Part shown: piece by piece, positions 265-20,300 of the stretch
How positions within the stretch are numbered: position 1 is the stretch's first letter
Layout: each line of letters begins with the position of its first letter
Assembly: GCA_038126035.1 (NCBI GenBank)
Contig: JAYPEY010000013.1
Coordinates: 9,547-73,546, forward strand
Direction: 5' to 3'
Source of the DNA: Verrucomicrobiales bacterium
Lineage (GTDB): Bacteria; Verrucomicrobiota; Verrucomicrobiia; Limisphaerales; JAYPEY01
Length of the DNA: 64,000 nt
Translations under genes and position numbers: made by a program
The notes under the pieces: model-generated
The model's database searches: none
Told to the model about the DNA's origin: nothing
What the model saw: only the letters and a program-made list of their open reading frames with translations

Positions 265-1341
265 TTACCGCTGCACGCGGGCGTTGCCCTTCCAGATGCT
301 CCAGACCTGATCCTCGTCAGCCGGTTGGCCGTAGTCAGTGAGGAGCGTCGCGGCGAGCGCGCCGCTGGCCCAGCCGAATTGCGCGCACTTCTCGCCTTCC
401 CAGCCGCGCAGGATGCCGTAGAGGAGTCCGCCGACGAATCCATCGCCGCCGCCGATGCGGTCGAGCACGCCGATTTCGCGGGGCATGATGACGTGGAAGT
501 CGTCGCCGTCGGCCACGATGCCGCCCCATTCGTGCAGATTCACGCTGACGACTTCGCGAAGCGTCGTCCCGTAGACGGAGCCGTTGGGGAACTCCTTCTT
601 CACCCTGTTGATCATCTCCTTGAAACTGTCGATCTTCGCGGCGATGTCGCTGCCGCCGGCCTCAGGACCCTCGACGCCGAGGCAGAGCTGGAAGTCCTCC
701 TCGTTGCCGATGAGAATGTCCGCCAACTGGCCGATTTCGTGGAACGCCTTGCTCAGCTCCTCTTCGCGTCCCTTCCAGAAACTGGCGCGGTGATTGAGGT
801 CGAAGGAGATCTTGCTGCCGTGCTTCTTGGCGGCGCGGGCGACATCGAGGCAGAACTGGGTCGATTGCGGTGAAAGCGCGGCAATCAAGCCCGACAGGTG
901 CACGATCTGCGCGCCCTCCTCGCCGAAGATGCGCTCCAGATCGAAGTCCTTGGCGTTCAGTTCCCGGCCGACTTCGCCTGCTCGGTCGTTCCAGACGCGC
1001 GGTCCGCGGGAGCCGACGCCGCTGTCCGCCATGTTGATCTGATGGCGGAAGCCCCAAGGCCCGCCCTGCGGGACGTCCGGCCCCTCGTAGTCCATGTGGC
1101 GGCTGGCCAGGTTGTCCTTGATCAGCCGGGAGACAGGGCTGCCTTCAACAAAGGCGGTGAGGATCTTTACCGGCAGGCCGAGGTAGGACGACACGGCCCC
1201 GACATTGGACTCGGCGCTGGTCGCCTGCAGTTTGTAGGTGTCGGAGCAGTGAAAGGGCTGGCCGTTCACTGGGGTGAGGCGCGTTCCCATGCTGGTGGGA
1301 ATCACGAGGGCGTATTTGCAGTCTTGCTTCAGTTCAATCAT
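265..1341 (-). CDS. PfkB-family sugar kinase, KdgK-like (candidate 2-dehydro-3-deoxygluconokinase)
   Basis: Track ORF 265..1503(-). Product from the internal Met (MIELKQDCKYALVIPTSMGTRLTP...) is 358 aa. It carries the C-terminal PfkB signature VLDRIGGGDGFVGGLLYG (439-471 on + coordinates), NEEDF, and overall KdgK-like layout and length. Start placed at ATG 1339-1341, because the 54 upstream residues of the track ORF are low-complexity and not kinase-like. Stop TAA at 265-267. Confidence 0.85.
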   Translation of the reverse strand: MIELKQDCKYALVIPTSMGTRLTPVNGQPFHCSDTYKLQATSAESNVGAVSSYLGLPVKILTAFVEGSPVSRLIKDNLASRHMDYEGPDVPQGGPWGFRHQINMADSGVGSRGPRVWNDRAGEVGRELNAKDFDLERIFGEEGAQIVHLSGLIAALSPQSTQFCLDVARAAKKHGSKISFDLNHRASFWKGREEELSKAFHEIGQLADILIGNEEDFQLCLGVEGPEAGGSDIAAKIDSFKEMINRVKKEFPNGSVYGTTLREVVSVNLHEWGGIVADGDDFHVIMPREIGVLDRIGGGDGFVGGLLYGILRGWEGEKCAQFGWASGALAATLLTDYGQPADEDQVWSIWKGNARVQR

Positions 1342-2013: not shown

Positions 2014-2262
2014 ACCGTTCAAGCGTTCGGTAGGCGTTCTATATCTTCTCTCATTTGCCTGGGTGAATTTCTTGCCGAATTGGTGACAATCTAATGGAGG
2101 GAAAAAAGATCTATAAATTGGGCTTGCAATTATTGTTGGAAGGGAACCATTCTCTGCGCGCTCGTGAAAGAGTGGCTCGGAGAGGGAACGCAATTCGTTG
2201 CGCAACAGGCTCCGCCGATCATTCAGGAGCATGTGTCGGGATTGTCTTGTGGCGGGCTCGCC

Positions 2263-2340
2263 ATGAAGTCGAACAAAGCCAAAAGTATGTTCGAATTGGA
2301 GTCTCTGGAGCAACGGGTTCTGCTCTCGGGCGACGGCTTT
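2263..2340 (+). other. LEPR-XLL-type N-terminal motif
   Basis: MKSNKAKSMFELESLEQRVLLSGDG. The LEQRVLLS core (2305-2328) matches the LEPRxLLS consensus that starts many very large extracellular proteins of Planctomycetes/Verrucomicrobia (recalled from the NCBIfam LEPR-XLL model). A short basic N-terminus is present but no hydrophobic Sec h-region. Confidence 0.7.
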
Positions 2341-5300
2341 GCAGTGACGCAGCCGGCTCCTTCAGACCTCGATTCCTCACCCTCGGATGTCGTCATTGAG
2401 GACACCGATCTGCTTTCTGAAATCGGATCGGAGGCCAACGAATCCGCCGGCGACGACTTCCTTTTTGAGGCCTTCTCAGACGCCGATCTGCTGGCCGATT
2501 CGGCCGTCGATTCTGAGGTGATCGTCAATGATTCTGACGACGATGAGCAGGTGCCCGAGGCGGCGGATGAAACCGCGATTGCGGCGGCGGAGTCCGCAGA
2601 ATACGGCGCTCAAGCAGAGGAAGAATCCACCCCTTTCAGTGAAGTAGATGCAGCGGGCATCGCGGACGAATTGACCGCCACGCTGAATGCTCCGAATCCT
2701 CCACCTGCCGAGATTTCAGCGGGCGAACCCGCAAATTCAGTTGAAAATGAAGATTCAGAAGACGGCTCCGGCACGAACGGGGGCGTCTTTTCCAGTTCCG
2801 GTGATCTGCATCTGGACGAGGATTCGCCGGTTGAGGTCGAGAATGGCCTGACCATCGGGGAGGATGAGACCCTCAGCGGCAGCGGGACGATCGACGGTGA
2901 TGTGGTCGTTGAAGGCGTCGTGAGTCCGGGGAATTCGCCGGGCATTCAGACCGTCAACGGCAATCAGACCTACGCCTTTTCCTCGACGCTGGAGATCGAG
3001 CTCGGCGGCCTGACTCCGGGCACGGGTTACGACCAGGTTCAGGTCTCCGGTCAACTCACCATGGGCGGCGAGTTGAAGGTGACCCTGATCGACGGCTTCG
3101 TCCCGAACGCGGGCGACACCTTCACGATCGCAACCTTCGGAGATGTCGCCGGCGACTTCGATGAATACACCGGTCTCGCCCTCGGCGGCGGTCTGGTCTT
3201 GAAACCGACCGTGGGCGACAGCAGCCTGACCCTGACGGTGGTTCAATCCCAAGCCCCGCGCCCTGTCCTCTTCATTCACGGATTCGGCGGCTCCTACTTC
3301 GCGGACAACTCGCCGGCCGGGATCGAGAACTGGCTGACCACACGGGGCATTCACCCCGAGTCAATCACCCAGGATCCCTTCTCCCACATCGGGTGGGACC
3401 TGATCCGTTCATTGGAGAATGCCGGCTATGTTCAGGATGTGTCCCTGTTCGAGGCGAATTGGGACTGGCGCGTCGCGGTCGGCCCGACAGACGGCGTGGC
3501 CGATGGCGTCCTGACCGGGGTGTCCGGAGCCACGATCACCAACGGAACCTACGAGACCGGGGTCGATTATCTTGGCTATTGGCTGAAGAAGGCCGTCGAT
3601 CGCTGGACTGCCCTGACGGGCAGCGCCCCGGATGCGGTCGATGTCATCACGCACAGCACAGGCGGCCTGGTGGCGAAATCCTACATCCAGAGTTCCGCCT
3701 ACGGCGACGGTCTTCCGGAAGTGGCGAACCTGATTCAGGTCGGTGTGCCCAACGAGGGCGCTTTGGCGCCGGTCAACATGCTGAAGAACGATTTCAGCAC
3801 CTCCGCCGCCGCTCGGGCTGCCGGTATTCTGGTCAACAACGCCTACGAACTGCTGAAGGGCGGAACAGACATCGCCGGGCCGACCGGGGCGATCAGCGCG
3901 TCTGCCGTCCCGAGTGAAAAAGACTTTGTCGGGATGTATATCGCCTCGTTGCGCGGGTTGCTGCCGACCTTCGCCTACCTTGACACCAACAACGACAACG
4001 TCCTGGAAACCGCGACCGGCGATCTGGTCAATGAGCTGGTCCTCGACCTGAACGGCGGAACCAATCCGAACGCCTTCCTGAACCGCTCGGGGGCGACGGC
4101 GACGACGATTGTCTACGCGACCGAAACCGACACCGGCGCCAAATCTGTTGTGCGGACGGGACCGGTCCTCGGGCTCGGACTGAAGAATGAGTTGCTGCCC
4201 TTCAGTCGCATCCTTGGGCGACTGCCCAACCCTGGGGAGGAATGGAATGAATTTGTCAGGCAGCCGGCCGCAGGCGATGGGACCGTCGCCACAACCTCGT
4301 CAACCGGCCTCTTCCAAGGCGTCACTCACGCCCAGCTCACCCTGACGGAGATCAAGTCCGCGGATGCGGGCTCTGTCGTGGGGCATCAGGACCTGTTGCA
4401 CGACGCCTACGCGCAAAAGCGGATCATTGAGGCGCTGACCGGCAGCCAGCCGGCGACCGGGGACATAAGCGTGGACCTGTTGGAGCCCAAATCCGCCTTC
4501 GCGACCGAAATCGTGGCGCTGGGATTGATCGATCCCGTCAAGGTTGTCACGCAGGCTTATCAGGACGTCGTTTCCTTCATCGATGGTCTGCGGCCGCACA
4601 CCGATCCCTACCTCAACACGACCCTGCCGATCGTGAACCAGAAGGTGAGCGACCTGATCGGGATCGACCTGTTGAAGGTCATCACTGATTCGCTGCCGAC
4701 AGTCGAAGTCAGCTCCGCGCCGTCGCTGGCCGCAATTGAGGAGGTCATCGAGGACGCATTGGGGCTGACGGATGTCGGACCGGCTGATTTCAACAACCCT
4801 GAGTTCACCCTGACATCCAACCAGGGCGTCTACAACTTCGCCTTCAACTTCGGAATCTCCGGCTCCAAGCAGATCCCGATCGATTTCAGCGCCTCGGCAA
4901 TTCCGGTGGATGGCTCCATGAATGTGGATGTTGCGACCGTCTGGAATCTGGACTTCGCCTTCAACTTCGATCTGGGAGCCTACCTGTCGGACTCCAAGGG
5001 CGGTTTCAGCGCCACGGACTTCGCGGTCACGCTGAATGAGTTGCGCGCCTCGGCGACGATTGACGCCACCGGCATCGACGTCGGATTGATGTTCGACGGA
5101 TTTGGAGCCATCGCAATCGAAGGCGGCAGCGCGGCGGTCACGGCGGCGGCGGTTGTCACGCCGGATGCGGCGGGTCCGATCACCCTGGAGCAGATCCGCA
5201 ATGTCTCCATCCTCACGCTGGTCGATGTCACCCCGACCGGGACCATGAATCTGGACCTCCCGGTGACCACGGTCCTGAGCGGTCAGGACTTCGCCTTCAA

Positions 5301-8300
5301 CGGGGCGACCACCCTGCAGTTGACCGATTCCGATCTGTTCGGCGGCGATCCGGTGGACGTCAGGATCGCGGTGACGGGAAGTCTCGTCGTCCTTGGGCAG
5401 GCGATCGATGGAAGCTTTACACTGCGTCGCACGGGCTCCGGCGCCGGTCAGGTGACTGCGGTCACGGCTACGATCTCCAACCTTGAACTCAAGGCGGGCG
5501 CGACGGTTGTGCTGAAGCTCGATGGTTCGGGCGCCCTGCAGATCGACTCCTCGGGCATTGCGGCCAAATTCGCTTTGAACCTGGTCGCCGGTCCCGCCGA
5601 TCCGGGCGTGTCGGCTTCCGGGACGGCCGGGCTGGAGATCAACACCACCAATGCGGCCGTGGCTGAGATTGACGGGCAGACTGTGAATCTCGCTGGCGGC
5701 TCCTACTTCAATGTCACACTCGCCAGCGCCAGCCTTGCGATCAACGGCAATTCCTTCAGCGCTGACCTGCTCAGCTTCAGCAAGGCCGGCGGCAATATCG
5801 ATGTGACCGGCTCCAATGTCGGATTTCTCCTGGCCACCGGCGGCAAGCGCATCGTCAGCCTTTCCGGCGCGGACGCCGCCTTCACCTTCACCCCCGACGG
5901 CATCGCCGGCGCCGCGGCCAACGCCACGATTCAGGGGCCGGACTTTCAGAACCTCTCCCTGACCGGAACGTTCGGCATGGAGATCAACACCACCGGCGGC
6001 GAAATCACCGTGAACCTCGGCGGGAGCCCGATCGTCATCGCCAGCGCCGGCGGCGGCTTCGTCAGGGTGACCGTGGCCAACGGACAGTTCACCGTGCTCG
6101 GCAATGTGATCTCCGCGACGCGGTTCGAACTGGAGAAGCGTCAAAGCGAGGTGCGCGTGATCGCCAAGGGACTCGGGCTCAATCTGCAGGCCGGTGGAAC
6201 ACGGATCCTGGAACTGGGCTCCGGTTCGGGTGAATTCCGCTTCAGTTCGCAGGGTGTGGCCGGGAAGCTCTCCCTGAACGTCGTGCAGGGCCCGGCGTTG
6301 GCGGGCGTCGCCATCGCCGGAGCCTTCGAGATTTCCGTGAACACCCGGTCGACTGAAGCCGTGGTCGGGACGGCGACACTGCCGGCAGGCCCCTACTTCA
6401 AGACCGTCGGACGCACCGCGACCGTCACTGTCCTGGGCAACGCGATCACGGCGGATGAACTGAGCTTTGAGACTGTCGGCGCCGGCAATGACGCCGTCGT
6501 CCATGTCGCCGCCAGGGGCGTCGGGCTGCGACTTCAGGCGGGCACGGCCTCATTGACGGTGAGCGACGGAATCGGCGGATTCCTGTTCACCTCGGCCGGC
6601 GCGGCCGGGTCGGTCTCCGTTTCCACCATTGTCCTTTCCGGCGTGCCGGGCGTCGCGCTGTCCGCCTCCGCCATGCAGATCGATTTCAACACGACCAACG
6701 CCGACGTCGCCGCCGTTGATGTGGGCGGCGTCACGCTGGAATTCACCGGGGCCTATGAACAGAACTTTGTCCGCGTGTCGGGCGCGGCCAGTGTTTCATT
6801 GGACAACTTCATGAGCCTTTCCGGAAGCTTCGCCTTCGAGAAGGGGGCGCTGGCGGGCGGCGGCGACGCCATCAAGGGCGCGGTCGCCAATCTCGCCGGC
6901 GTGCTGGGCAGCGGCGTCGGGACGGCGGACGAAACCGGCGTGAAGGTCTCCAACGTCAGCGGCGGCTTTGTCATGCTGCCGGCGGGCCTGGCGCTGCAGG
7001 CCGAAGGAACCGGCGCGCTGGTCGGTCTCAACGGGGTTCAGCTTTCCGGCAACGTTTCTGTGGAGGTCAACACGACGGTGTCCGCGGTGAATGAAACGAT
7101 TTCCACGCCCGGCGGCGATGTCACCGTGACGTTCGCATCAGCGGCCCTGTTTCAGGCCGTCACCGCCAGCGGCCTCACCCTGAGCGTCGACGGCTTCGTC
7201 GATCTCAACGGAGACTTTCACTTCGAGCGCAGCTTCGAGGGCGGCGCGACCAAGATCATCGCGGGCGCTTCCGCTGTGAACGCCTTCGTCGGTGCGAATT
7301 CGGCGGGCGTGAAATTCTCAGGCGGTTCGTTGGGGCTGGTTCTCTTCCCGGAAACGGATGTCTACGCCCTGACCGCCACCGGCGCCGCGTCGCTGGACGG
7401 TTTCCCTGGCCTTTCGCTGGCAGGCAGTCTGTCGGTCGAAATCAACAACACCGGGGCGCCGGTTGACGAGCAGATCGCCACGCCCGGCGTCAACGTCCAC
7501 ATTGATTTTTCTGAAGCCGCCGACGTGCAGCGGATCGCGGGCAGCCTTGACCTGACGGTGGACGGCTTTGCGACGTTGTCAGGGAATTTTGCCTTCAGCC
7601 AGACCGGGACCGGCGCCGACGCAAAGGTGTTGGCCTCGGTCGACAGCCTGAACGCTGAAATGGGGGGCGGTGCGGCCAAGGTTGCGGTGACCAACGGTGA
7701 GCTGGCCTTTGCCCTCTACACCTCCTCCGGCAAATACGCCCTGCGCGGTTCGGGCGACGCGGCCTTGAACGGCGTTGCCGGCCTGGGATTCTCCGGGACG
7801 CTGGCTGTCGCCGTGAACAACACCGGCGGCGCGGTTTCGGAGACCGTTCCCGCGTCCGGCGGCGTGCGCCATCTGTCCTTCAATGTCAACGAAGGCAATC
7901 TTGCCCGCTTCGAGGGAACGGGCGTTCAACTGGCCGTCGATGACGCGGTCGATATCAGCGGCAACTTTGTCATTGAACGCAATGCGGTGAACGGCGAGAC
8001 GCGCGTCGGGGCCTCCCTGGTCAGCGCTCTGATGAACAACAACGGCCGCGGTATCCAGATCTCAAACGGCTTCCTCGGTCTGCTGCTCAAGGATGACGGC
8101 AAATATGCGCTGAACGCCGGCGGCGATGGATCGGTGATCGGGATCTCCGATGTGGAACTTGCCGGAAACCTTCAATTGCGCGCCAACAAGCTCGGCGCGG
8201 CGGTGGATGATTCGATTGAGGCCGGAGTCGATGGCACTGATGGCAACCCGGTCACAGTCGCCCTGGACATGCCGGCCGGCCTGGCCCTGGAGTTGATCGG

Positions 8301-11300
8301 TGCCGACGTCACTCTGCGGATCGCGGGCAGCCACTTCACCGCGGACGAAATCAGATTCGTCCAGTCCGCCAATCAGATCGACGTCACCGGCCAGCGGATC
8401 AGCTTCTCCATGAATGCGGGCGCGACCCGGATCGTGGGGGTGCAGGACGCCGACTTCGCCTTCAAGTTCACGGACGCCGGCGTCGCCGGCGCGGTGAAGA
8501 ACGGAACCATCCTCGGTCCGGACTTCGGAGACGACTTCAGCATCGACGGCAATGTCACCGTGCTACTGAACACCATGTCGACCGCGCAGACAGTGTCGGT
8601 CGATTCCCAGATGATCGCCCTGCAGGCGGCCGACAACGGCAGCCCATTCCTCCGCGTCGAGGTCGCCTCCGAGATGACCATCTTTGGCTCCACCTTCACG
8701 GCTGATCGCTTCGATTTTGAACTCCGCGACTTCGGAGTCGATGTCTCCGGCGTGAATCTGGGCTTCGTGTTGAACGCTGGATCCAAACGGGTTCTCGGGT
8801 TGAGCAATGCCGACTTCGCCTTCCGGTTCACGGAGGAGGGTGTGGTTGGCGCCGTCCGCAATGCGATGGTGGCCGGCCCGGACTTTGGCGGGAACATCGA
8901 TCTTTCCGGGACCGTCAATGTTGATGTGAACACCACGACCCTGGCGACCGTGCTGAACGTCGATGGCCAGTCCATCCTCGTCGAGGCGGCTCCGGTGGGC
9001 GGCTATTTCATCGACACAGAGGTGTCGGCCGGAATGTTGACGGTGTTTGGCAGCGAATTGTCCGCGGATGTGTTCCGGTTGCGCAAGGACGGCGACGGCG
9101 TGGCCGTGGATGGCTCCGGTCTGGACTTCGTTCTTAAGGCCGACACCAAGCGGATTCTGGGAATCGAAGGCGCTGACTTCGCGTTCAATTTCACCGAATC
9201 GGGCATTGCGGGCGCGGTTGTCAACGGCCAGGTGAGCGGGCCGGAACTCGCCGACATCAGCTTGAGCGGCGAGGTCAGCCTGTTTCTGAACACGACCGAC
9301 GCGGACGCCGAGGTCACGGTCGGCGGAAACGCGCTTCAAATTGCGGCGGCCGGCGGCGCGGGTCACTACGTTCGCTTCGAGGTCGCCAACGGGGCTCTGG
9401 TCGTCCTCGGCAATTCCCTCTCGGCGGCGACACTGGTCCTTGAGAAGTCCGGCGACGACGTGAGCGTGACCGGGACGAAGCTCGGCTTTGAACTGGTTGC
9501 CGGCACCAATCGTGTGTTGGGGCTGAAGGACGCGGACTTCGCCTTCCTGGCCACGAAGGACGGCATCGCCGGCGCGGCGAAGAACGGATCGCTCCTGGCC
9601 TCCGATTTCAATGACGGCTTCTCGCTTTCCGGAAATCTGTCTCTCCTGGTCAACACCACCGGCGCGGCGGCGGCGCTTCAGGTCGGCTCGGAGATGGTTG
9701 CCGTCCCCGCGGGTGGCGGCTCCTTCGTTGAGGTCAAGTTGGCATCCGGCGGGATCTCCCTGCTCGGACAGACCCTGGCCGGCGACTTCGCCTTCCGCCG
9801 AATGCTGGTCGATGGTCAACCGCAGGTCGATGCGGACGGCGCCAATGTCTCGTTGAAACTGGGGGCAGGTTCGACCGAGCTTCTTTCCGTCAGCGATGGA
9901 ACCGTCGATCTGACGATCAACCATCAGGGGACGGTCGGCTCCTTCAGTGGCGAAGTTTCCTCCTCCGTTCCGAATCTCTCCTTTAATGGCGTCTTCTCTG
10001 TTGTCATCGACACCCGGCTTGCCACTGATCGTCACATCCGCGTGAGTGGAACGGGCGTCAGCGCGACCATCGCGGGGCAGACAGTCGCCGGCGACTTTGT
10101 GATTGAGCAGACGGTGTCCGCCGGCGGCGGGACGGTGGTCGGCGTCGCGGTCGAGAACCTCGAGGTCAACCTCGGCGACGGGACAAACACCTACGTCACG
10201 GCAACCAACGGTCGCGGATACTTCCTTATCACGCCGCTGGGTCTGGCGGCGAGCGCCTCGGCGACGATCAGCCTCGATGTCTCCGGCCTCAAGCTGACCG
10301 GCGGCGCCGTGAGCATCGAGATCAACCAGACCGATCAGCCCGTCCAGTCGAACTTTATTGTGGACGGCAACGCGCCGAGCCAGTTGTCCCTGGAGGCGGG
10401 ACCATTCCTGCGGGTCAACGTGACGGAAGCCGAACTTGAAGTTGGAACCGGCGGACCTGTCATGAAGGGCGATTTCTTCTTCGAACAGGAGAACCGCGCC
10501 GATAGCTCCAAGATCGTGCGCATCGGCGTGGCGAATCTGGAGGTGACCTGGGGCGGGCAGGGCATCACCAATGGCGCCGGCGCCTTCGTGATCCTCGACA
10601 ACGGCGGCGTCAGTTCCATTGCAGGAATCGCCTCCGGCGAGGCTTCGGTCGCGGTCGGCGGCGTCGCGGTCGGCGGCAGCTTCGGCCTGCGGGTCAACAA
10701 GACCGGCATGGCGGTCTTCGAGACGATCACGGTCGGCGGCAAGGAGTTCGAGATCAACTTCACCGACGGTTCGGATGTCTTCAGCTTCTTCGGCGAGAAC
10801 CTGACGTTGAGCATCGGCGGATTTGTCACCATAGAGGGCAGCAATGTCAGCTTCACCGGAAACGAATTCACCGGCTCCGGCATCAAGATCTTCCTCGGAC
10901 GCGGTCCGCTGCTGCTGCCGGACCAATCCATGAATCCGTCCGCGGTCGGCCTGCTGGTCAGCGACGCGGCGGTGGCCCTGGCCAAGGACGGCGCCAACTA
11001 CGCGCTCTACGCGAAAGGCAACGTCGAGTTCATCGGCGTCGCCGACGTGACGGTCGCCGGTGTGGCGGTCGTCCGCTTCAACAACACTTCGACGGATCGG
11101 ACCTTCAACGACGCCGCCGGCGGACTGACCATCGGCGCCATGAGCAACGCCGACGACGTGACGGTCGCCATGGGCGAGGCCTCCGCCAACGGCGCGCTGA
11201 ACCTGGATCTGCTGGGGCAGCGCATTTCCGGTTCCTTCGGCTTTACCCGTCCCGGCGCCAACGCCGAGGATCAGGCCCTGAGCTTCTCGCTGGCGAACGG

Positions 11301-14300
11301 CGTGGTCCAGATCGGTCCCGGCGGTTCGCCGGTCGTCTCGGTCACGAATGGCGAAGGTCTGTTCCTGGTCAACGGGCAGGGCGTCGCGGGCCGGGCTTCG
11401 GCCAACGTGGCGTTGAACGCCGGCGGCGCGGCGTTGACCGGCGCCTTCAAGCTGGCGGTCAACACCATCCCGGCCGCGATCAATGAGGAAGTCGTATCCG
11501 TCGATCCCGCCGATGCGACCATGACGATCACCCAGACGCTGGTCCTCCCGACCGGCCCCTACCTGCGGCTCGAGGCGCGGGCTGTCGACGCCTCGACCCC
11601 GGCCACTTTGACCACGGGCGCTCTGACCCTGAGCGGCGACTTCGATTTTGAACAACGCGTCAGCGGCGGGGCGGACGGCGATATCTCCACGACCGGCGAC
11701 AACTCCAAGGTGGTGACGGTCGGCTTCGCCAATGTCTCGGTGGACCTGGGCGGCGACGTGCTCCAGGCCCGCAATGCCAGCGGCCTGTTCATCATCGGCG
11801 CAACCGGTCTTGCGGGCGCGGCCAGCGCGGACATCTCACTCAAGGCCGGAACCGGCGTCTCGGCCTCAGGTCGATTCAACCTCGTGATCAACCGCACCGG
11901 CGCCGCGGTTTCCGAGACGGTGAATGTCGCCGGCCTGCCGATCACCATCGATGCGCCGGGCGGGGACTACCTGAAGATCTCGGGCGAGGGCGTGAACCTC
12001 ACGATTGCCGGGCAGACCCTGAGCGGCGATTTCGAATTCGAGCAGACCAACGCCGGTCCTGACGGCGTTCCCGGTAATGGCGATGACGCCCCCGTGGTGA
12101 ACGTCACCGCGGCGAATGTCGAAGTGGACCTGGGTTCCGGTCTGGTGACCCTGACCAACGGCAACGGCCAGTTCCTGCTTTCGGATCAGGGCTTCACCGG
12201 AACCGTCAGCGCCAATGTCTCGGTCGACGCCGGAACCGGCCTGACCCTGACCGGCAGCTTTGCGTTGAAGATCAACACGGCGAACGTCGGTGTGCTCGGC
12301 CTGCCCGCCGGTCCCTACCTGCGCATCGAGGTGACTGAAGTGAATCCGACCACGCCCGCGACCCTGATCGTCGGCGGACAGACTTTGAACGGCGACTTTG
12401 TCATCGAGGCGGTCACCACCCTCGGAGCCAATCCCACCGAGGAGGTTTCCATCGGCTTCAAGAATGTCACCCTGACCCTGGGCGAGGGCGGCAATCCGTT
12501 CCTCACCCTGATGAACGGCATGGGCTACTTCGTCATCGGTCAGAATGGCCTGGCCGGGACGGCAGCGCTCGAAGCGATGCTTCACGTGCCCGGGGTCACC
12601 ATGGTCGGCAAGGTGCGCATGTCCATCAACCGCACGGGCGTCGCCGTAAGCCGGCAGTTTGAAATCGATGGCGAGCGCATCTCGCTCGAACTGCCCGCCG
12701 GACCCTATCTGAAGCTGAACGTTGGCGCGGTCAATGACACCACCCCCGCTTCACTGACGGTCGGCGGCCAGACCCTGTCCGGCGACTTTGAGATCGAACA
12801 GGCGACCACCGCCGATGGCGACGAGGTCCTGCGAGTCGCTGCGCGGAATGTGTCAGCCTCCTTCGGAGCGGGAATGAACGGAGCGAATGGCGTCTCCCTG
12901 ACCCTCACCAACGGGAGCGGGCTCTTCCTCATGAACGCCGCCGGTATGGCTGGCCGGGCCTCTGGAACGGTAAGCCTGAACAACGTTGACAACGTCACAC
13001 TGAACGCAGATCTCGCGCTGCAATTCAACAAGACCGGCGCTCCGCTGACCGAGCAGGTCGGCGGCGAGACACTGAGCTTTACTGAAGGCGACTTCCTCCG
13101 TATTTCCGGAAATGCGACCCTGGATATCGCCGGTTTCGTGGGCTTGTCCGGCGACTTCGCGTTCGAAAGCGGCATGGACTCCGGCATGCAGCAGGTCATC
13201 AAGGTCGGCGCGGCCAACGTCACCGCCACCTTGGGTGTGCCGGGCGGCTTCGGGCTCGATCTCACCAATGGCAGCCTGGCCTTGCTGGTCTTGAACGGCG
13301 GGAAGCTTGTGGTGGAGGCCGAAGGCGATGTCGCCCTCCGCGGGTTCAGTGGTCTGTCGCTCAACGCGTCCATGAAGTTGCGGGTCAACAACTCCGGCGC
13401 CGTCGTCAACGAGACCTTCGATGTCAACGGTTCAACGTTGTCGCTGCAGTTTGGGGCCGGGGAAGGGGACGTCGCCCATGTCGAGGCGACCAGTGTCCAG
13501 TTGATCACCCCCTTGGCCACGTTGACCGGCGACTTCAAGTTTGAGAAGGATGGCACCACGAATGAGGTCCTGGTCGCCGGTTCCAATGTGGAGTTGTTCG
13601 TCGGCAAGGTCGGCGGCCCCGGAACGGCCGACGACGTCGGCGTGCGGATCACGGGCGCAAGCGTGGCGGCGTTGCTGACGCCGGGCGGCGGCTATGCCCT
13701 GCAGGCCTCCGGAGCCGCTTCGGTCGTCAATGTTCCGGATTTCTCATTCTCCGGTGACCTCAGCGCCGAGATCAACACCACCGGCGCGACGGTCACCCGC
13801 CCGATCGATGTCGCCGGTCAGAACCTGACGCTGAACGTCAAGGCGGGCGTCAATCGATTCGGCGCGGAGAACGTCACCCTTGCAACGCCGGTCGCGGACC
13901 TGAGTGGCGACTTTGCGGTCGAGACGGTCGCGGTCGCCGGCCCCGATGGCATTATCGGAACGGCCGATGACGACACCGAGGTCCTGATCGGCGGAACCAA
14001 CATTTCGGCCTTCGTCGGCGACGGCGTGGGCGTGCGGATCGACAACGCCAATCTCGCGGTCTTGCTGACTTCCACCGGCTACGCACTGCAGGCCGCGGGC
14101 TCGGCGCAGACCGTCGGAATCCCGGGCGTCAGTCTGTCAGGAACATTCTCCGTGCAGCGGAACACTCACGCCGCCCAGGTGACCCGCACGCTCTCCGTGG
14201 GCGGTGAGACCCTGACCCTGGACCTTGCCGCCGGCATTTCAAAGTTCGTTGGAAAAAGTGTCGAACTGACCGTGCTCGGTCAGACCTTGAAGGGCGACTT

Positions 14301-17300
14301 TACCTTCGAGCAAATGGGCGTCGGCGCGGCGGCCACGGTGAAGCTTACGATTGAGAACGCCTACCTCGGTCTCGGCGATGGAACCACTGACTTCGTCTCC
14401 GTCTCCAACGGAATGGGTGAATTCACCCTCTCGGGAGACGGCATCGCCGGTTCCTTCTCCGGTCAGGTCGGAACAAATATCCCGGGCGTCAGCTTCGGCG
14501 GCAGCTTCAGCGTCATGATCGACAACACCGACGCGTTGAACTCCTACGTCCGGATCGAGGGCGACAATGCCCACTTCGAGGTCGCCGGACAGCGGATTGA
14601 AGGCGACTTCGTCATCGAATCCCGCACGACCATGGGCGGCGCGAAGGTCGTGGCGATCGGTATTGCGGACCTCAGCCTGACCTTGGGCGATGGCGGCATG
14701 AACTACGTCAGCATCACCGGAGGTTCCGGCCTCGCCATTCTGAATCCGGTGGGACTCGCCGCCAGCATCACTGTCAACCCGACGATCACCCTTCCCGGCC
14801 TGATGCTCACCGGCGGCACGGCCAGCCTCGACATAAACACGACGAACATGGCGGTGAACGAATCGCTGGATGTCGCCGGTCAGACTGTAACGGTGGATGT
14901 GCCGGCCGGTCCGTTCCTCCGGGTGGAACTCACCGGAGCCTCGCTGAACGTTGCCGGCGCAGTGACGCTCGCCGGCGACTTCGCCTTCGAACAAAGCACG
15001 GGGGCCGGCGGCGCCAAGAAGACCCGCCTGGCCGTGGCCAACGTCAGTCTCACCTACGACAATCAAGGCCTCAAGAAGGGCGAGGGCGCTTTCATTGTCA
15101 CCGACGCGGGCATTGCCGGTCTGCTTTCCGGCGACATCGATCTGAACGTCGGCGGCGCCACTGCCGAGGGACGCCTCGGCTTCCGCATCAACACGACCAC
15201 TTCCGCCGTCGATGAGACGGTCTCCTTTAATGGCGGCGAGATCAACGTGGTCTTCAGCGACACGGAGGTGCGCAATGTCGGAACGGGGCAGAACTTCCTC
15301 CAGATCTACGGGGAGGACCTTTCGCTCAACATTGGCGACTTCATCACCATCGAGGGCAGTGTCTCGTTCACCAACCAGGGCGGGAACTCGGTCTTCGCCG
15401 GCAAGGACCTGACGGTCTTCCTCGGCCAGGGGCCGGCGCGACTTCCGAACGGCGAAATCAATCCGACCGCCATCGGCGTGCTGCTCTCGGACGCCACAAT
15501 CGGCGTGGTCAAATTCGCGGACGGCAAGTTCGCCGTGAACGCCAGCGGCTTGGTGAGCATCGTTGGCGTGGGCGGCCTCAGTCTCTCCGGTCTGGCCCAG
15601 ATCCGCTTCAACAATTCCGGCCTTACGGTCGATCAAACGCTCACGATTCCCAGCGTCAGCGGTCCCTCCACCGACATCGATGTGAAATTCGACACGCCGG
15701 ATCTGGTCTCCGCCTTCCGCGGTTCGGATCTGGACCTGGGCATCGGCGGCCTGAAGCTCAACGGCGGCTTCAACTTCGGCAAGATCACCGCCGGGGCTTT
15801 TGCCGGCGCGATCGATATCGATGCCGTGGATGTCTCCTTCAGCTTTGGCGACGTTCTTGATGTCGAAGGGGCCTTCGGCGACCTGATGTTCACGGCCGAC
15901 GGTCTGGTTGGCGACCTGGGCGGGGGGATTTCGTTGAATGTGCCGGGTGTCTCGCTGGGCGGTGACTTCCGCATCAAGATCAATCAGACCGGAGTCGCGG
16001 TGAACGAACAGGGCTTCAATCTGCCGGCCGGCCCCTACTTCCGCATCGAGGGCGCGGGCGTTGACCTGAATCTCCTTGGCCAGCGCGTGTTCGGCGACTT
16101 CGTCATCGAGCGCCTGACCACGACCGACGGTCTCGCCGCCCTGCGGATCGGATTGACGGACGCCGGACTCAAGTTCAAGGCCGGCGACACCGAACTGCTG
16201 AGCCTGACCAATCTGAATGGCGCGGTCCTCGTCCTGCCGACCGGAGTGGCGCTTGAGGCCGAAGCGACGGTCTCCGTGGCGCCGGGCCTCGGGGTCTCAC
16301 TCGGCGGCGACTACAAGCTTGCGATCAATACGACCAACCAGCCGGTTCAGGACTCGTTCACCGTCGGAACCTCCACGGTTGCGGTCGATCTGCCGGCGGG
16401 GCCGTACGTGCGCCTTCAGGGACTGAACGTCTCGCTCACCATCCTTGACCAGACCCTGACCGGCGACTTCGCCTTCGAGCAGACCACCACGGCCGATGGC
16501 GGCAGCGCGGTCCGACTTGGCATCGTCAACGGCGAGTTGAGCTTCGGCGACGGAAACACGGACCTGGTCACCTTCAGTCAGGTCGGCGGAAGCCTGCTGC
16601 TCAACGCCAACGGCCTGGCCGGCGAGTTGTCCGGTTCGGTCAGCGTCGCTCCTTCCCTCGGCTTCACCCTGGGCGGCAATTACAAGCTCGCGATCAACAA
16701 CACCAACGCCGCGGTCTCGGATTCGATCCGGGTCGGAAACAACACCGTGGCGCTCAACCTGCCCGCCGGCCCCTACCTGCGGCTCGAAGGCAATGGCGCG
16801 GTGATCAACGTCGGCGGCCAGTCCATCTCCGGCGACTTCTCCGTCGAACGCGTCACCCGGATGGACGACTCGCAGGTCACCCGCATCGCGGCGAGCAATG
16901 TCGAGGTGCGGATCGGCAATGGCGTGACCGATTACGTCACCCTGACCAACGGCTCCGGCCTGTTCCTCGCGACTCAGGCGGGCATTGGCGCGCGATTGAG
17001 CGGGACGGTTTCGGTCGGCGTTCCAGGCGTTTCGATGAGCGCGGCGTTGACCTTTGAAATCAACAACACCAACGCGGCCATCAACGAGACCTTCGAGGTC
17101 GGCGGTCAGTCCGAAACACTGAATCTCGCCGCGGGCCCCTATCTCCGTGTGATGGGAACAGGCGTTTCATTGCAGATTGCCGGACTGACCCTGTCCGGCG
17201 ACTTCGAATTTGTCCGCAAGACGGTCAACGCCCAGACTGTGGTCGAGTTGACCGTGGCCAATGTGAGCTTCGGACTGGGCGACGGGACAACCGATTTTGT

Positions 17301-20300
17301 CAGCCTCACCAACGGCGCCGGCATGTTGACCATCGACGCCGCCGGCATGCGCGGTGAATTCATGGCAACGCTGACGGCCGATGTGCCGGGCGTCGCTTTC
17401 GGCGGTCAGTTCGCAGTGAAGGTGAACATGGATCGCGTCAATCCCGCAAATCGTTACCTGCGTGTGCAGGCAACGGGCGTCACGCTCACGGTGAACGGGG
17501 CGCTGGAACTGACCGGCGATGTCGCCTTCGAGGAAACCACCAACATGGCGGGCGGGAAGATCGTTCGCGTTGGCGTCGCAAACCTCGGGTTGAAACTCGG
17601 GCCCAATGGCTCGCCTTTCGTCACCGTCTCAAATGGCTCCGGACTCCTGGTCCTCACCTCGCAGGGCATGGCCGGCTCCTTCACGGCCCGGGCATCGTTC
17701 GACATCGACAATGTCTCCATCTCCGGCGGCCGGATCTCGGTCGACGTGAACACCGGCACGATGGCGGTGAATGAATCCATCCAGGTCGGCGACACCCAGT
17801 TGACGGTGAACGTGCCGGCGGGCCCCTACGTGCGCGTTGAGGTTCTCGGCGCGGCCGTGAATATCGCGAACGGCGCCGCGCAACTGCTGGGCAACTTCGC
17901 CTTCGAGCAGGCCACGGCCGCAGGCGGAGGAACGATCGTCCGGATCGGCGCGACCGACGTCAGCGTCGCCATCGATGGGCAGGGAATGAAGAACGGCGAG
18001 GGAGCCTTGATCGTCACTCCCACCGGAATCGCAGGCCTGCTCTCCGGCGATATCGACATCTCCGTCGGTTCGGCGAGCGTGGCCGGCAGCATCGGACTGC
18101 GAATCAACAAGACCGGCGCCGCCGTGGACGAGCAGGTGCAGGTGGGAACCCAGACCATCGCCGTCAAGTTCGACAACACCGAGACCGATCTCATCGAATT
18201 CTTCCTTGCCAACGCCTCCTTCATGGTCGGCGACTTCGTCACGATCGAAGGCAGCGTCAATTTCCGGTCGCAGAACGGGAAGGATGTCTTCGCCGGCGAC
18301 AACCTCCTGGTCTTCCTTGGTCGCGGGCCCATCGAACTGCCCAACGGCGATCGAAATCCGGCCGCCGCCGGCCTGTTGCTCTCCAACGCCAAGGTCGGCC
18401 TTGTCCGCTTCCTGGATGGCACGTTGGCGCTGAATGCCAGCGGCACGATCGAAATCATCGGCATCGACGGGGTCAGCCTCAGCGCCAACGCGACGATTCG
18501 CTTCAACAATTCCGGGCAGGTGGTGGACGAAACCGTCACTGTCCAGGGCACCGGCGAGGATATTGAGGTGAAGTTCGACACCGCCGCTCCCGCGGCCTAC
18601 GTGGCGACCGAGAACGTCAACCTGAACGCGCTGGGTCAGACCTTGAGCGGTGATTTCACCTTCGAGAAAATCTCCTCCGGAGCCTACGCCGGCGCGCTCA
18701 AGATCACGGCGGCTCAAACCAGCCTTTCCCTCGGCGGCGGCGCGCTCACCGTGGAGGATGGTTCGGGCGTCCTGCTCCTGACCGACACCGGCCTGGCCGG
18801 CGATCTGGCGGCGACCGTCGGCGTCAATGTGCCAAACGTCAGCCTTGGCGGCGATTTCCGCGTCCAGTTCAACGGCATTCCGTCCACCATCGACGATCCG
18901 TCCATCGGACTTGCCGGACTGCCCGCCGGCGAGTTCCTGCGCGTGACCGGGACCGGCGTTCATCTTGACATCCTCGGTCAGCGCTTGTCCGGCGACTTCA
19001 TCATTCAACGCGTGACGACCATGGGCGGCGGCGAGGAATTCCGCGTGGGCGTGGCCAATGGCTCCCTGAGTTTCGGCGACGGATCGACCAACCTGGTCAC
19101 AGTCTCCAACGTCAATGGCAGCTTCATCATGACAAACGCCGGGCTTGCCGGTCAGATGACCGCCAGTGTTTCCACCGCTCCGGAATTGGGCGCGTCCTTT
19201 ACCGGCGACTTCGAACTCAAGGTCAACACGACCATGGCCGCGGTCAACGAGACCATGATGGTCGGCGCCGAAACCATCACGATCAATGTGCCGCAGGGGC
19301 CGTATCTCAAAGTGGAAGGTCAGGACATCGTCCTGGCTGTGTCCGGTCAGTCGCTGAGCGGCGACTTCGTCTTCGAGCAGGCCACACGCGCCGACAATTC
19401 CACCGTGACCCGCGTCGCCGCCGAAAACGTCGAAGTCCACCTCGGCGATGGGACGACCGACTTCGTCAGCCTGACCAACGGCAACGGCTACTTCTTCACC
19501 ACCGCCGCCGGACTCGCCGGCAAACTCAGCGGCATGGTCTCGTTGAACGTCCCGGGGGTCGCCTTCAACGCGCAGCTTGCGCTCGAGTTGAATCCGTCGA
19601 TGACCGCAATCGACGAGTCCTTCGAAATCGGCGGATCAACGCAGACCCTGGCGCTGCCCGCCGGGCCTTACCTGCGCCTGACGGGAACGGGATTGAACAT
19701 CGATATTGCGGGGCAGACCTTGTCCGGCAACTTCACCTTCACCCAGCGCACGGTGAACAACGCCGAGGTGGTGGAACTTTCCTTCGACAGCGTCGCGCTG
19801 AATCTCGGCGACGGCACGAACAACCTCGTCTCGGTCACCAATGGCACGGGCATGTTGACCATCGATTCCGCCTCCACTCGCGGAAGCTTCTCCGCCGACG
19901 TCGAGGTGAACATTCCGGGCGTGACCTTCAGCGGCTCATTCATGGTGGACATCTTCGTCGATCGCGTGAATGCGGCGAACCGTTCACTGAAGGTCAGCGG
20001 TGAGCAGATAAACCTGACAGTCGCCGACCAGACCCTGCGCGGTGATGTGGTCTTTGAGCAGACCACGGCCGGCGGAGGGGCGACGGTTGTGCGTGTGGGC
20101 GTCGCCCGTTTGTCCATGTCCTTGGGCGATGGAACCAACACCTTTGTCTCGATCACGGGCGGCAAGGGCCTCTGGATCGCGGACAACACAGGCATCGCTG
20201 GAACCCTGTCGGTCAGCGCCATCTTCGACCTCCCCGGGGTGACGCTCAGAGACGATCAGGTGAACATCGCTGTGAACACCTCCCCGAGCGCCGTCATGGA

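Follow-up and report, generated by a model that had tools for sequence, protein, structure and literature searches.

The 64,000-nucleotide stretch of Verrucomicrobiales DNA analysed here (the window) contains the 5' part of an exceptionally long reading frame, the product of which begins with a LEPR-XLL-type motif in the place of a classical signal peptide. The locus raises the question of whether this N-terminus is a genuine member of the LEPR-XLL family, and of how a protein of such a size might be recognised and exported by the cell.

Identification of the LEPR-XLL tag and of the start codon

Analysis of the window indicated that the reading frame contains no stop codon before base 64000, therefore the product size given in Table 1 is a lower bound. 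The protein deduced from the ATG at position 2263 (+ strand) starts with MKSNKAKSMFELESLEQRVLLSGDGF. Search of NCBIfam identified model NF012209.1 (LEPR-XLL, model name LEPR-8K) with a score of 24.7 bits, above the curated cutoff of 17 bits, and an E value of 1.2e-5; the alignment covered model positions 1-21 of 24, began at residue 10, that is at the extreme N-terminus, and fell on a very large carrier protein. The core sequence L-E-Q-R-V-L-L-S fits L-E-P-R-x-L-L-S at seven of the eight positions, Gln being found in the place of Pro. Both the family assignment and the P to Q substitution had been put forward in the initial annotation and are upheld by these results. NCBIfam searches at E values up to 10 using the first 100 aa, the first 1,200 aa and the upstream-extended translation returned no family except NF012209, therefore no other known N-terminal family was detected in residues 1-1,200. 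The regular expression derived for the tag matched once in the six frames of the 64-kb window, at the N-terminus of the giant ORF, while control DNA (reversed or codon-shuffled) gave 0-1 matches per 947 kb. The N-terminus of the window protein is a typical and correctly recognised LEPR-XLL tag on an exceptionally long gene.

The alternative considered in the initial annotation, that translation starts upstream, for instance at a GTG, and yields a normal signal peptide, did not hold. Translations from the in-frame codons GTG 2164, GTG 2233 and TTG 2242 showed no hydrophobic leader. An ortholog from a Verrucomicrobiales MAG (L001), 87.6% identical to the window protein across 3,379 aa, conserved the ATG and carried a TAG stop six codons 5' of it, aligned with TTG 2242, and the upstream starts are ruled out for this reason; the contig of this ortholog extends just 165 nt upstream. 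A promoter and terminator scan of the 920-nt spacer upstream of the giant ORF found none.

Table 1. Features of the window, with coordinates, strand and supporting evidence.
Feature	Position	Strand	Evidence or remark
PfkB-family sugar kinase, divergent upstream neighbour, outside the secretion operon	265..1341	-	
In-frame stop closing the frame 5' of the giant ORF	2092..2094	+	
Alternative in-frame TTG start, ruled out by ortholog L001	2242..2244	+	TAG in L001; translation LSCGGLAM..., no hydrophobic leader
Giant ORF	2263..64000	+	At least 20,579 aa; reading frame runs past the window end
Start codon and short basic N-region MKSNKAKSM (3 Lys, 0 acidic)	2263..2289	+	
LEPR-XLL domain match, residues 10-30, FELESLEQRVLLSGDGFAVTQ	2290..2352	+	NF012209.1; core LEQRVLLS at 2305-2328
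Acidic, predicted-disordered linker, about residues 26-175	2338..2787	+	
First folded beta-rich domain (predicted), about residues 178-330, SPGNSPGI motif	2794..3252	+	Structure model
Lipase-like alpha/beta-hydrolase region (DUF7379-like), about residues 331-700	3253..4362	+	
RTX calcium-binding nonapeptide repeats, example, aa 13,350-13,384	42310..42414	+	HemolysinCabind, E 4.1e-18
PA14 domain, aa 14,574-14,706	45982..46380	+	PF07691, E 1.1e-30
RTX repeats, example, aa 18,758-18,793	58534..58641	+	HemolysinCabind, E 7.6e-82
Proprotein-convertase P-domain	63592..63909	+	PF01483, E 3.1e-42; best of 3 stretches, last 579 aa of the window

Absence of a signal peptide and nature of the N-terminal tail

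Within the first 70 aa the longest stretch free of D, E, K, R, H, N and Q was five residues (VLLSG). By this run-length measure and by Kyte-Doolittle hydropathy, the uncharged hydrophobic core of about 7-15 residues that characterises a Sec (type I) signal peptide was absent; the best 12-residue Kyte-Doolittle mean was 0.94 in the window protein versus 2.07-2.94 in homologs of the downstream domain that bear Sec signals. Residues 1-30 likewise contained neither an RR pair, the basic residues being Lys and the single Arg18, nor a hydrophobic core as required for Tat export, and motifs of Tat-like or prepilin-like leaders were absent from the N-terminus. The tag is followed by a tail in which residues 26-200 include 48 D/E and 0 K/R, and the length and sequence of this linker vary between homologs. 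The missing signal peptide and the acidic linker described in the initial annotation are thereby both confirmed.

The structure model of residues 1-340 (mean pLDDT 51, built on a 7-sequence alignment) was used solely for calling disorder in the tail. It predicted that residues 1-174 have pLDDT values below 50 and nearly no secondary structure apart from one short helix at 133-141, so the tail after the tag is predicted to be disordered. A folded retention plug at the N-terminus was considered and rejected, as no other NCBIfam family was matched and the tail is predicted to be disordered.

Domains of the giant protein

The predicted beta strands of residues 178-330 had 10-residue-block mean pLDDT values of 44-78, with the best blocks at 71-78, and the region is weakly similar to autotransporter-associated beta-strand repeat proteins. 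In the lipase-like region that follows, the DUF7379 match (residues 454-501) is under Pfam's cutoff. Homologs P0004-P0014 carry the lipase-like domain preceded by classical Sec signal peptides, and two homologs of this domain also harbor T9SS sorting domains. Judged from these sequences, the tag fills the signal-peptide slot on a cargo of the exported type.

Over the 20,579 aa encoded in the window, the giant protein has 2 Cys and is 13.3% Gly, and nothing in it resembles a transmembrane segment. Long internal repeats occupy residues from about 1,000 to 10,700, and Pfam gave almost no matches on the first 10,000 aa. RTX repeats, as expected of a type 1 substrate, were found in 16 stretches, 4 of them in aa 10,001-15,000 and 12 in aa 15,001-20,000, and FG-GAP domains are also present. 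Among ten longer LEPR-XLL proteins, eight were without any Pfam match.

Distribution of the LEPR-XLL family

A profile search run exhaustively against 1.84 billion representatives identified 2,112 proteins at E values up to 1e-3, and in all of the 150 best of these the tag started at or before residue 69; LEPR-XLL is strictly N-terminal. In the logo constructed from 126 N-termini the tag began at residue 23 (median), and the region before it had a median net charge of +3. Positions E13, L15, E16, R18, L20, L21 and S22 show little or no variation among family members. Gln in the place of Pro is a minority variant (3 of the 126 N-termini). It is common at the Verrucomicrobiota-dominated loci of a tag-first genome survey, a count that is biased because either P or Q was accepted and the window sequence served for confirmation, and it was also identified in tagged genes adjoining the operon described below (L015, L069, L082 and L092). 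Related ORFs ran off their locus in 28 of 30 cases, and at the 16 loci with a full 10-kb flank this corresponds to more than 3,300 aa.

Tagged proteins were named from Alpha-, Beta-, Gamma- and Deltaproteobacteria and from Zixibacteria, tagged loci were recovered from Desulfuromonas, Magnetococcales, Lentisphaerales, Desulfobacterales and Pseudomonadales, and the literature adds one Vibrio strain and one Chlorobium species. The hint towards the PVC superphylum drawn in the initial annotation is not sustained by this range: the motif is a weak taxonomic marker, and its use as a PVC-specific one was rejected. For the window itself, the 87.6%-identical ortholog L001 points to Verrucomicrobiales as the probable source. 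The statement that its function is not established stands, since none of the sources found gives a function for the LEPR-XLL family.

A secondary SecA_DEAD operon is linked to LEPR-XLL genes

An operon of five genes was found near LEPR-XLL genes. It encodes a TolC-like protein, a small HlyD-type adaptor, a GAF-HlyD adaptor, an M50 fusion protein and a SecA paralog, and has no ABC component. The SecA paralog (about 660 aa) keeps the two ATPase domains and the preprotein-binding domain and is without the wing domain, the two-helix finger and the C-terminal tail; it aligns only with residues 29-602 of Bacillus subtilis SecA, and its GEGKT and DEAD motifs are intact. The M50 fusion consists of a PqqD/RRE-like domain, an M50 (site-2) protease domain, which retains HExxH and NxxPLLRFDGYY, and an HlyD-like domain. 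It matched the daptide intramembrane leader peptidase family with an E value of 3.9e-51 and 174 bits, under the family cutoff of 300 bits. PqqD (PF05402) matched 26 of 35 N-terminal domains of the M50 proteins, the hits being weak (best E 1.3e-5); since a profile of this domain found no match among PDB sequences, the RRE-like assignment is drawn solely from the Pfam PqqD hits. An inner-membrane channel is not evident among the components of the operon; Kamneva et al. suggested that the M50 protein might form one (PMC4452313).

Two surveys showed that the tag gene is linked to the operon and that this linkage is strong. Starting from the tag, a SecA-like gene was adjacent at 5 of 30 genome loci (L011, L015, L017, L018 and L022, the last from Magnetococcales). 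Starting from the operon, among the 42 metagenome loci with at least 700 nt beyond the SecA-like gene, a tagged ORF was present somewhere in the locus at 17, and at 11 it lay on the same strand with its start within 1.5 kb. Apart from the ORF of L044, which is closed at about 250 aa, all of these tagged ORFs continue past the flank, their visible part amounting to at least about 800-2,600 aa. The tag expression gave 19 matches in 947 kb versus 0-1 in reversed or shuffled DNA. Adjacency is partial, as no partner was present within 10 kb at about 60% of the operon loci and about 83% of the tag loci, and the background expectations for these adjacency figures are rough estimates.

The two nearest homologs of the window protein, P0001 (42% identity, locus L031) and P0002 (39% identity, locus L116, a Chthoniobacteraceae MAG), are encoded 97-98 nt downstream of the SecA-like gene. 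Desulfuromonas versatilis, the genome of which is complete, has the operon in divergent orientation to a gene whose product, of at least 2,752 aa, begins MGKSSVSKFWLEPLEPRLLFSADL. A divergent clade of M50 proteins accompanies divergent tag variants, for example LE[PE]RL[ML]LT[TA]L, a correspondence that may be due to nothing more than the common ancestry of entire loci. The 64-kb window itself contains no gene for an operon protein, and only the PfkB kinase lies upstream of the giant ORF. The operon was described by Kamneva, Poudel and Ward (2015, PLoS One) in Planctomycetes, Verrucomicrobia, Proteobacteria, one Nitrospirae and one Chlorobi (PMC4452313), a phyletic range that overlaps that of LEPR-XLL. 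No paper linking the operon to LEPR-XLL was found.

Discussion

Proposed route of export

From genomics only, we consider it probable that LEPR-XLL is a leader that routes giant, cysteine-poor, calcium-binding proteins into a secondary SecA_DEAD export system. The first 25 or so residues would form a linear targeting tag, a short basic stretch followed by F-x-L-E-x-L-E-(P/Q)-R-V-L-L-S-(A/G)-D, carried on the disordered acidic tail. On leaving the ribosome the leader would be bound, its probable receptor being the RRE-like domain that the M50 fusion has in the cytoplasm, the clamp of the SecA paralog, or both. With ATP the paralog would thread the unfolded chain N-terminus first, so that export could begin during the many minutes of translation. 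The chain would then cross the periplasm and the outer membrane through the adaptors and the TolC-like duct, and the RTX repeats would fold upon contact with external calcium. The protease, with HExxH and NxxPxxxxDG intact, may remove the leader, as RRE-fused site-2 proteases do on daptide precursors, or may release a tethered protein upon a signal from the GAF domain. The tag itself, its strictly N-terminal location, its conservation, the lack of a Sec-type leader and the strong gene linkage to the operon are observed, whereas leader binding, the direction of transport, leader cleavage and the presence of the operon in this organism are inferred.

The proposal bears on two ideas of the initial annotation. 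That the tag serves export or processing fits its genomic link to an envelope-spanning system with a leader-peptidase-like protease. The term 'non-Sec' holds in part: a classical Sec signal is indeed lacking, and the associated motor is a SecA paralog.

Stated in full, and tentatively, LEPR-XLL may be the cargo signal of an orphan but widespread machine of diderms, in which a truncated SecA paralog would replace the ABC exporter, an RRE-fused site-2 protease would read and perhaps remove the leader, and proteins of 3,000 to more than 20,000 residues would be threaded N-terminus first, possibly co-translationally, through HlyD-type adaptors and a TolC-like duct.

Comparison with known systems

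The locus described by Kamneva et al. has the same composition (SecA_DEAD, Peptidase_M50/HlyD, GAF/HlyD, HlyD and OEP) and occurs in the same phyla, and a type 1-like secretion role was proposed there as well (PMC4452313). The difference is that no cargo was named in that paper and the biological role was called "completely unknown" (PMC4452313). The link of the operon to LEPR-XLL giants and the RRE-like domain on the M50 protein are proposals of the present work.

Among processing enzymes, a close parallel is an RRE-fused site-2 protease that removes daptide leaders, such as MpaP (bioRxiv 10.1101/2023.03.08.531785), which the operon M50 protein resembles in its N-terminal PqqD/RRE-like domain and intact HExxH. 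RiPP leaders, EpeP, and double-glycine leaders with peptidase-containing ABC exporters (PMC10885120) follow the same logic, a short N-terminal leader being recognised and removed at the membrane during export, although its removal here is putative. These systems differ in that RiPP substrates are tens of residues long compared with thousands to more than 20,000 for LEPR-XLL cargo, and in that the operon M50 protein carries an extra HlyD-like periplasmic domain and scores below the cutoff of the daptide peptidase family (174 against 300 bits).

The motor is reminiscent of accessory SecA2 of Gram-positives and mycobacteria, also a second SecA-family ATPase dedicated to a special exported subset. 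SecA2 proteins retain the complete architecture of SecA and cooperate with SecY or SecY2, whereas the operon paralog ends within the scaffold helix, is encoded with adaptors and a TolC-like protein in diderms, and scored 390-480 bits against SecA2 models, under their cutoffs. Giant proteins of Omnitrophota embed SecA_DEAD and preprotein-binding domains proposed to act in their own export (West-Roberts et al. 2023, bioRxiv 10.1101/2023.11.21.568195); there too a SecA-like motor without scaffold and wing domains is tied to giant proteins. In Omnitrophota the SecA-like domains lie inside a giant with many transmembrane helices, while here a separate 660-aa motor accompanies a giant without a transmembrane segment, and 'LEPR' does not occur in the text of that paper (bioRxiv 10.1101/2023.11.21.568195).

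Type 1 RTX adhesins such as LapA, SiiE and MpIBP are likewise giant, acidic, Cys-poor and RTX-rich, lack a Sec leader, and leave the cell through HlyD-family adaptors and a TolC-family duct. Type 1 systems rely on an ABC exporter and a C-terminal signal, export their substrate C-terminus first, and have as N-terminal retention module a folded domain; the LEPR-XLL signal, by contrast, is a linear one at the N-terminus, and the ATPase that goes with it is a SecA paralog.

Alternative explanations

RTX repeats are the hallmark of ABC-driven, C-terminus-first type 1 secretion, and the window protein could be a classical type 1 substrate exported through an ABC transporter, HlyD and TolC by means of a C-terminal signal, with the tag as a retention, anchoring or anti-folding element comparable to the N-terminal plug of LapA. 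We regard this as unlikely. The 16 RTX stretches, the very few Cys, the acidic composition and the missing Sec leader are all in agreement with it, as are the C-terminal RTX and serralysin-like regions reported for a Vibrio LEPR-XLL protein and the type 1-like export that the authors of a Chlorobium study proposed for their LEPRxLL giants. However, no ABC exporter recurs beside LEPR-XLL genes; the genes that do recur there encode the SecA paralog, M50-HlyD fusion, GAF-HlyD adaptor and TolC-like protein of an operon with no ABC component. Moreover, NCBIfam matched only the LEPR model in residues 1-1,200 at E up to 10, and the tag sits on a tail predicted to be disordered rather than on a folded plug.

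A variant of the favoured leader hypothesis holds that the tag is never removed. The RRE-like domain or the motor would keep it in the cytoplasm or in the inner membrane, and the giant protein would be a cell-tethered fibre that passes through the duct and is freed by the M50 protease on a signal sensed by the GAF domain. The operon does encode both an adaptor equipped with a GAF sensor and an intact protease, in parallel to the LapD/LapG system that controls the release of LapA, and the long disordered acidic linker after the tag could span the conduit. The RRE-fused relatives of the M50 protein are nevertheless constitutive leader peptidases, and we consider the variant distinctly unlikely.

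It is very improbable that the conserved peptide or its mRNA acts in cis on translation, for instance by pausing or arresting elongation until the nascent chain has been engaged, and not as a tag recognised for transport. Nucleotide identity between the window and the ortholog, which reaches about 100% from about -25 to +80 around the ATG versus 89% overall, is in line with such a role, and so are the Pro/Gln-Arg pair in the motif and the expectation that, when synthesis has only begun, the motif would still be inside or close to the ribosome exit tunnel. Across phyla, however, conservation is at the amino-acid level with codon choice free, the tag co-localises with a transport operon and not with translation factors, and no arrest-peptide family was matched. 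An action on translation is in any case compatible with the leader hypothesis.

Finally, that the resemblance arose by chance or from a wrong start codon, the true protein having an ordinary signal peptide upstream, is already refuted and retains next to no credence: the motif is short and three in-frame GTG/TTG codons precede ATG 2263, but the HMM score exceeds the curated cutoff, the frame 5' of the ATG is free of any hydrophobic stretch, a stop lies six codons before the ATG in the ortholog, and the six frames of the 64-kb window contain the motif once against 0-1 per 947 kb in the controls.

Significance

LEPR-XLL is a curated name borne by many of the largest bacterial proteins with no function given, and the operon, on record since 2015, lacks a named cargo, its role being described as "unknown". 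Joining the tag and the operon yields a single testable hypothesis of a signal of about 25 residues and a five-gene machine. Among cultured organisms Desulfuromonas versatilis has both, and Kamneva et al. report the operon from Methylobacterium extorquens AM1 (PMC4452313). If the reading of an orphan machine is true, it would represent a separate route of secretion that has a signal, a motor and a processing enzyme of its own. A true link between tag and operon would explain the export of proteins too long to stay unfolded until a C-terminal signal is made, and would supply a portable leader for the secretion of very large recombinant proteins. It would also make the surface and secreted "giant proteome" of Verrucomicrobiota, Planctomycetota and many Proteobacteria predictable from sequence.

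Start and N-terminus of the giant protein

Analysis of the plus strand revealed an ORF that starts at ATG 2263 and continues without a stop codon up to base 64000; open at the window end, with a product of at least 20,579 residues and the N-terminus MKSNKAKSMFELESLEQRVLLSGDGF, it is among the longest bacterial ORFs. The frame upstream is shut by an in-frame stop ending at 2094. The in-frame starts GTG 2164, GTG 2233 and TTG 2242 were rejected, as they would add only the residues VKEWLGEGTQFVAQQAPPIIQEHVSGLSCGGLA, which contain no hydrophobic core. A colinear ortholog on a Verrucomicrobiales MAG contig (L001) showed 87.6% identity over 3,379 aa. Because the ortholog has TAG in the place of TTG 2242, keeps the ATG and is near-identical to the window from about -25 to +80 around it, the DNA alignment provides good support for 2263 as the true start.

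NCBIfam searches with the first 100 aa, the first 1,200 aa and the upstream-extended translation returned no family at E up to 10 other than NF012209.1 (LEPR-8K, "LEPR-XLL domain-containing protein"), which matched residues 10-30 with 24.7 bits (E 1.2e-5; curated cutoff 17 bits). The LEPR-XLL N-terminus reported in the initial annotation is thus confirmed, and so is the P-to-Q change in its core (LEQRVLLS); the protein is a Q-variant member of a known domain family. No run without D, E, K, R, H, N and Q in residues 1-70 exceeded five residues (VLLSG), and the best 12-residue Kyte-Doolittle mean was 0.94, against 2.07-2.94 in homologs with classical signal peptides. Residues 26-200 carry 48 acidic and no basic residues. 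The lack of a signal-peptide core and the acidic linker described earlier were therefore both found, and the normal signal peptide that an upstream start might have yielded was not. A structure model of residues 1-340, built on a shallow alignment (mean pLDDT 51) and used solely for tail disorder, gave pLDDT below 50 nearly throughout residues 1-174, with one short helix, and a beta-rich domain from about residue 178 onward; the tag is predicted to lie on a disordered tail.

The 920-nt spacer ahead of the gene contains an AT-rich ATATA-type repeat run (ATATATAGTACCCCAATATAGATATATACAATATATACC), and a consensus scan of this spacer found no sigma-70-like promoter or terminator. The only upstream neighbour in the window is a divergent PfkB kinase gene.

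Composition and domains of the giant protein

The 20,579 residues include 2 Cys and 13.3% Gly, with acidic residues exceeding basic ones, and no transmembrane-like segment was found across them. Pfam was near-silent across the first 10,000 aa, and long internal repeats of 30-54% identity were found at residues about 1,000-10,700. Beyond the first 10,000 aa Pfam identified 16 stretches of RTX calcium-binding repeats, a PA14 domain, FG-GAP repeats and three proprotein-convertase P-domains. By composition and domains the protein looks like an exported one.

Near the N-terminus, residues about 331-700 resemble a lipase-like domain (DUF7379). In Bacteroidota-type and other proteins this domain stands behind Sec signal peptides, with T9SS sorting domains in two of them; therefore the LEPR-XLL tag fills the signal-peptide slot, and the export route of this one passenger domain appears to differ between phyla. 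Homologs of this domain elsewhere are proteins of 800-1,100 aa with Sec signal peptides.

Cumulative GC skew over the whole window fell steadily to -0.93 and AT skew was mostly positive along the giant ORF, so its coding strand is C-rich and A-rich throughout; this bias probably comes from the Gly/Asp/Thr/Asn-rich repeat composition.

Distribution of the tag

Homologs of the first 700 aa share the N-terminus, as in MRRKPNIAGNLFELEALEPRVLLSADLL and RFELEMLEQRVLLSADG. A profile search yielded 120 short N-terminal fragments, whose named sources were Alpha-, Beta-, Gamma- and Deltaproteobacteria, Planctomycetota, Verrucomicrobiota, Zixibacteria and Sedimentisphaerales. With this phylum spread the tag is widespread in double-membraned bacteria and is no PVC marker, so that the taxonomic hint drawn from it in the initial annotation is weak, although the window most probably stems from one of the Verrucomicrobiales. 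The logo of 126 N-termini was [RK][RN][RK]-F-x-L-E-A-L-E-P-R-[VI]-L-L-S-[AG]-D, with Pro at the P position in 119 and Gln in 3; the median motif start was residue 23 and the median net charge upstream of it +3. HMMER, run exhaustively against 1.84 billion representative proteins, detected 2,112 with E up to 1e-3, and in all of the best 150 of these the matched stretch begins within the first 69 residues. At 28 of 30 genome loci the tagged ORF runs off the locus, which puts its length above 3,300 aa at the 16 loci with a complete 10-kb flank.

Published mentions of the domain are incidental and concern a Vibrio protein of about 8,000 aa with a C-terminal RTX/serralysin region (PMC10868602) and the Chlorobium chlorochromatii giant proteins Cag_663 and Cag_665 (bioRxiv 10.64898/2026.03.19.712371).

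A divergent tag class (F-E-x-L-E-[EP]-R-L-[ML]-L-T-[TA]-L; MEPRLLLDAN) with low tag-HMM scores heads giant ORFs beside a divergent M50/SecA-like operon clade. Short tagged ORFs of 113-280 aa, and a 72-aa tagged protein annotated as complete (P0137), may be frameshifts, assembly errors of giant genes, pseudogenes or genuinely small tagged proteins. DUF4347 follows the tag in the protein P0401, and a DUF4347-like stretch was seen by eye after the tag in the Desulfuromonas versatilis protein, which hints at a recurrent first module behind the leader.

Linkage of the tag to a SecA-paralog operon

Clustering of the ORFs upstream of 30 tagged genes gave one recurrent set of five neighbours (see table). 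The SecA-like gene adjoins the tag at 5 of 30 loci by tblastn (L011, L015, L017, L018 and L022, the last from Magnetococcales), and its large family is nearly uniform in length (658-665 aa). The five-gene order is kept on contigs of several sources, among them D. versatilis and a Methylomirabilota MAG. The complete genome of D. versatilis has, divergent from the operon, a gene whose product is at least 2,752 aa long and has the N-terminus MGKSSVSKFWLEPLEPRLLFSADL. The two nearest homologs of the window's giant protein both lie downstream of a SecA-like gene, P0001 (42% identity) starting after 98 nt and P0002 (39%, Chthoniobacteraceae) after 97 nt.

In the reverse direction, metagenome contigs scanned with the M50-like protein gave 80 loci (947 kb). 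The order GAF-adaptor, M50-like, SecA-like was constant wherever the flanks show it, and the TolC-like and small adaptor genes were usually upstream and sometimes inverted. A regular expression for the tag matched 19 times; the reversed sequences gave one match, and five codon shuffles gave 0, 0, 0, 1 and 0. Among the 42 loci that extend 700 nt or more past the SecA-like gene, the tag HMM found a tagged ORF starting on the same strand within 1.5 kb at 11 and anywhere in the locus at 17, leaving out one spurious 5-bit match (L070); a rough estimate puts the chance of a tag in a random 20-kb locus at a few percent. The tagged ORFs at the 17 loci run off the flank, with the sole exception of L044, which ends after about 250 aa. 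Adjacency is partial and not universal, a pattern to be expected of a single machine that serves several tagged cargoes in the same genome; in one Limisphaerales MAG, for instance, three contigs each carry a tagged locus. A divergent M50 clade pairs with divergent tags LE[PE]RL[ML]LT[TA]L, which is compatible with co-evolution but also with shared descent of whole loci.

On a 1.97-Mb contig (L033) the M50-like gene is split into two ORFs and two apparently identical IS copies (DDE transposase) follow the SecA-like gene in the place of the tagged gene; the system may be decaying or rearranged.

Coordinates and order of features in the window and at related loci
Feature	Locus	Position	Strand	Remark
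Spacer ahead of giant gene	window	1342-2262
AT-rich repeat run	window	1978-2020
Lipase-like alpha/beta-hydrolase region, DUF7379-like	window	3253-4362 (aa about 331-700)	+	motif PVLFIHGFGGS
Three proprotein-convertase P-domains, then FG-GAP-like sequence	window	62263-63999	+	window end
TolC-like OEP protein	tagged loci			recurrent neighbour 1
HlyD-type adaptor, ~250 aa	tagged loci			recurrent neighbour 2
GAF-HlyD adaptor, ~610 aa	tagged loci			recurrent neighbour 3
~720-aa protein, weak Peptidase_M50 similarity	tagged loci			recurrent neighbour 4
~660-aa protein, SecA_DEAD, SecA preprotein-binding and SecA P-loop domains	tagged loci			recurrent neighbour 5, directly before tagged gene
Divergent tag	L094	6397	-
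Divergent tag	L102	14644	+
Divergent tag	L107	3040	-
Divergent tag	L113	13367	+
Short tagged ORF	L003	10001-10342
Short tagged ORF	L012	10001-10480
Short tagged ORF	L044	1560-2405
DUF4347-like stretch, D. versatilis	L032	about 2400-2600	-
Split M50-like gene and IS copies	L033	8269-15262

Components of the operon

The M50-like protein has an invariant HExxH (LHEFGH), keeps the site-2-protease motif NxxPLLRFDGYY and has a HlyD-like periplasmic region at its C-terminal end. A PqqD/RRE-like fold is suggested for its first ~100 residues: the Pfam model PqqD (PF05402) matched 26 of 35 such N-terminal domains (best E 1.3e-5), and the N-terminal profile had no match among PDB sequences. The NCBIfam daptide intramembrane metalloprotease model matched residues 24-404 with E 3.9e-51, under the family cutoff. 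The SecA paralog aligns to B. subtilis SecA over residues 29-602 only, with intact GEGKT and DEAD motifs; on the published SecA domain map this covers the two ATPase domains, the preprotein-binding domain and the beginning of the scaffold helix, whereas the wing domain, two-helix finger and C-terminal tail are missing. Several SecA paralogs of ~662 aa (P0246, P0263 and P0286) are named "prepilin peptidase" at NCBI, which looks like mis-annotation given that Pfam assigns them SecA_DEAD, SecA_PP_bind and P-loop_SecA. In daptide clusters an RRE fused N-terminally to a site-2 protease reads and removes the leader peptide (bioRxiv 10.1101/2023.03.08.531785), and the M50 protease EpeP is thought to cut and also export its own peptide (PMC10885120).

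Exactly the same "secondary SecA_DEAD domain protein" locus was described by Kamneva, Poudel and Ward (2015; PMC4452313) in Planctomycetes, Verrucomicrobia, Proteobacteria and one species each of Nitrospirae and Chlorobi. Their proposal was type 1-like secretion with SecA_DEAD as ATPase and the M50 protein as possible pore; they called the biological role "completely unknown", named no cargo and did not mention the tag; no follow-up was found in the literature. West-Roberts et al. (2023) reported truncated SecA-like domains within Omnitrophota giant proteins and suggested self-export. The Chlorobium study (bioRxiv 10.64898/2026.03.19.712371) reports co-expression of the LEPRxLL giants with Cag_1676, a secA gained by horizontal transfer, and draws no link between the two. 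No paper tying LEPR-XLL to the operon was found in the literature searched, the coverage of which was incomplete.

Proposed role of the tag

We consider it moderately likely that the tag is an N-terminal leader that commits giant proteins to the SecA-paralog system, whose operon the window's organism would then carry as well. The foremost competing reading, in which classical ABC-driven type 1 secretion exports the protein and the tag is a retention element, is favoured by the RTX repeats of the giant protein and the Vibrio LEPR-XLL protein, but tagged genes had no recurrent ABC neighbour and the N-terminus no folded plug. With the tag as a leader to the SecA paralog, the RRE-like domain and/or the SecA clamp would bind it, and ATP-driven threading would proceed N-terminus first, which would permit export during translation. 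The chain would cross the inner membrane by a putative channel and pass via the adaptors and the TolC-like duct, the RTX repeats would fold outside, driven by calcium, and the M50 protease would cut off the leader or free the protein under regulation. The tag exposes a testable link between an unexplained motif and an orphan secretion operon.
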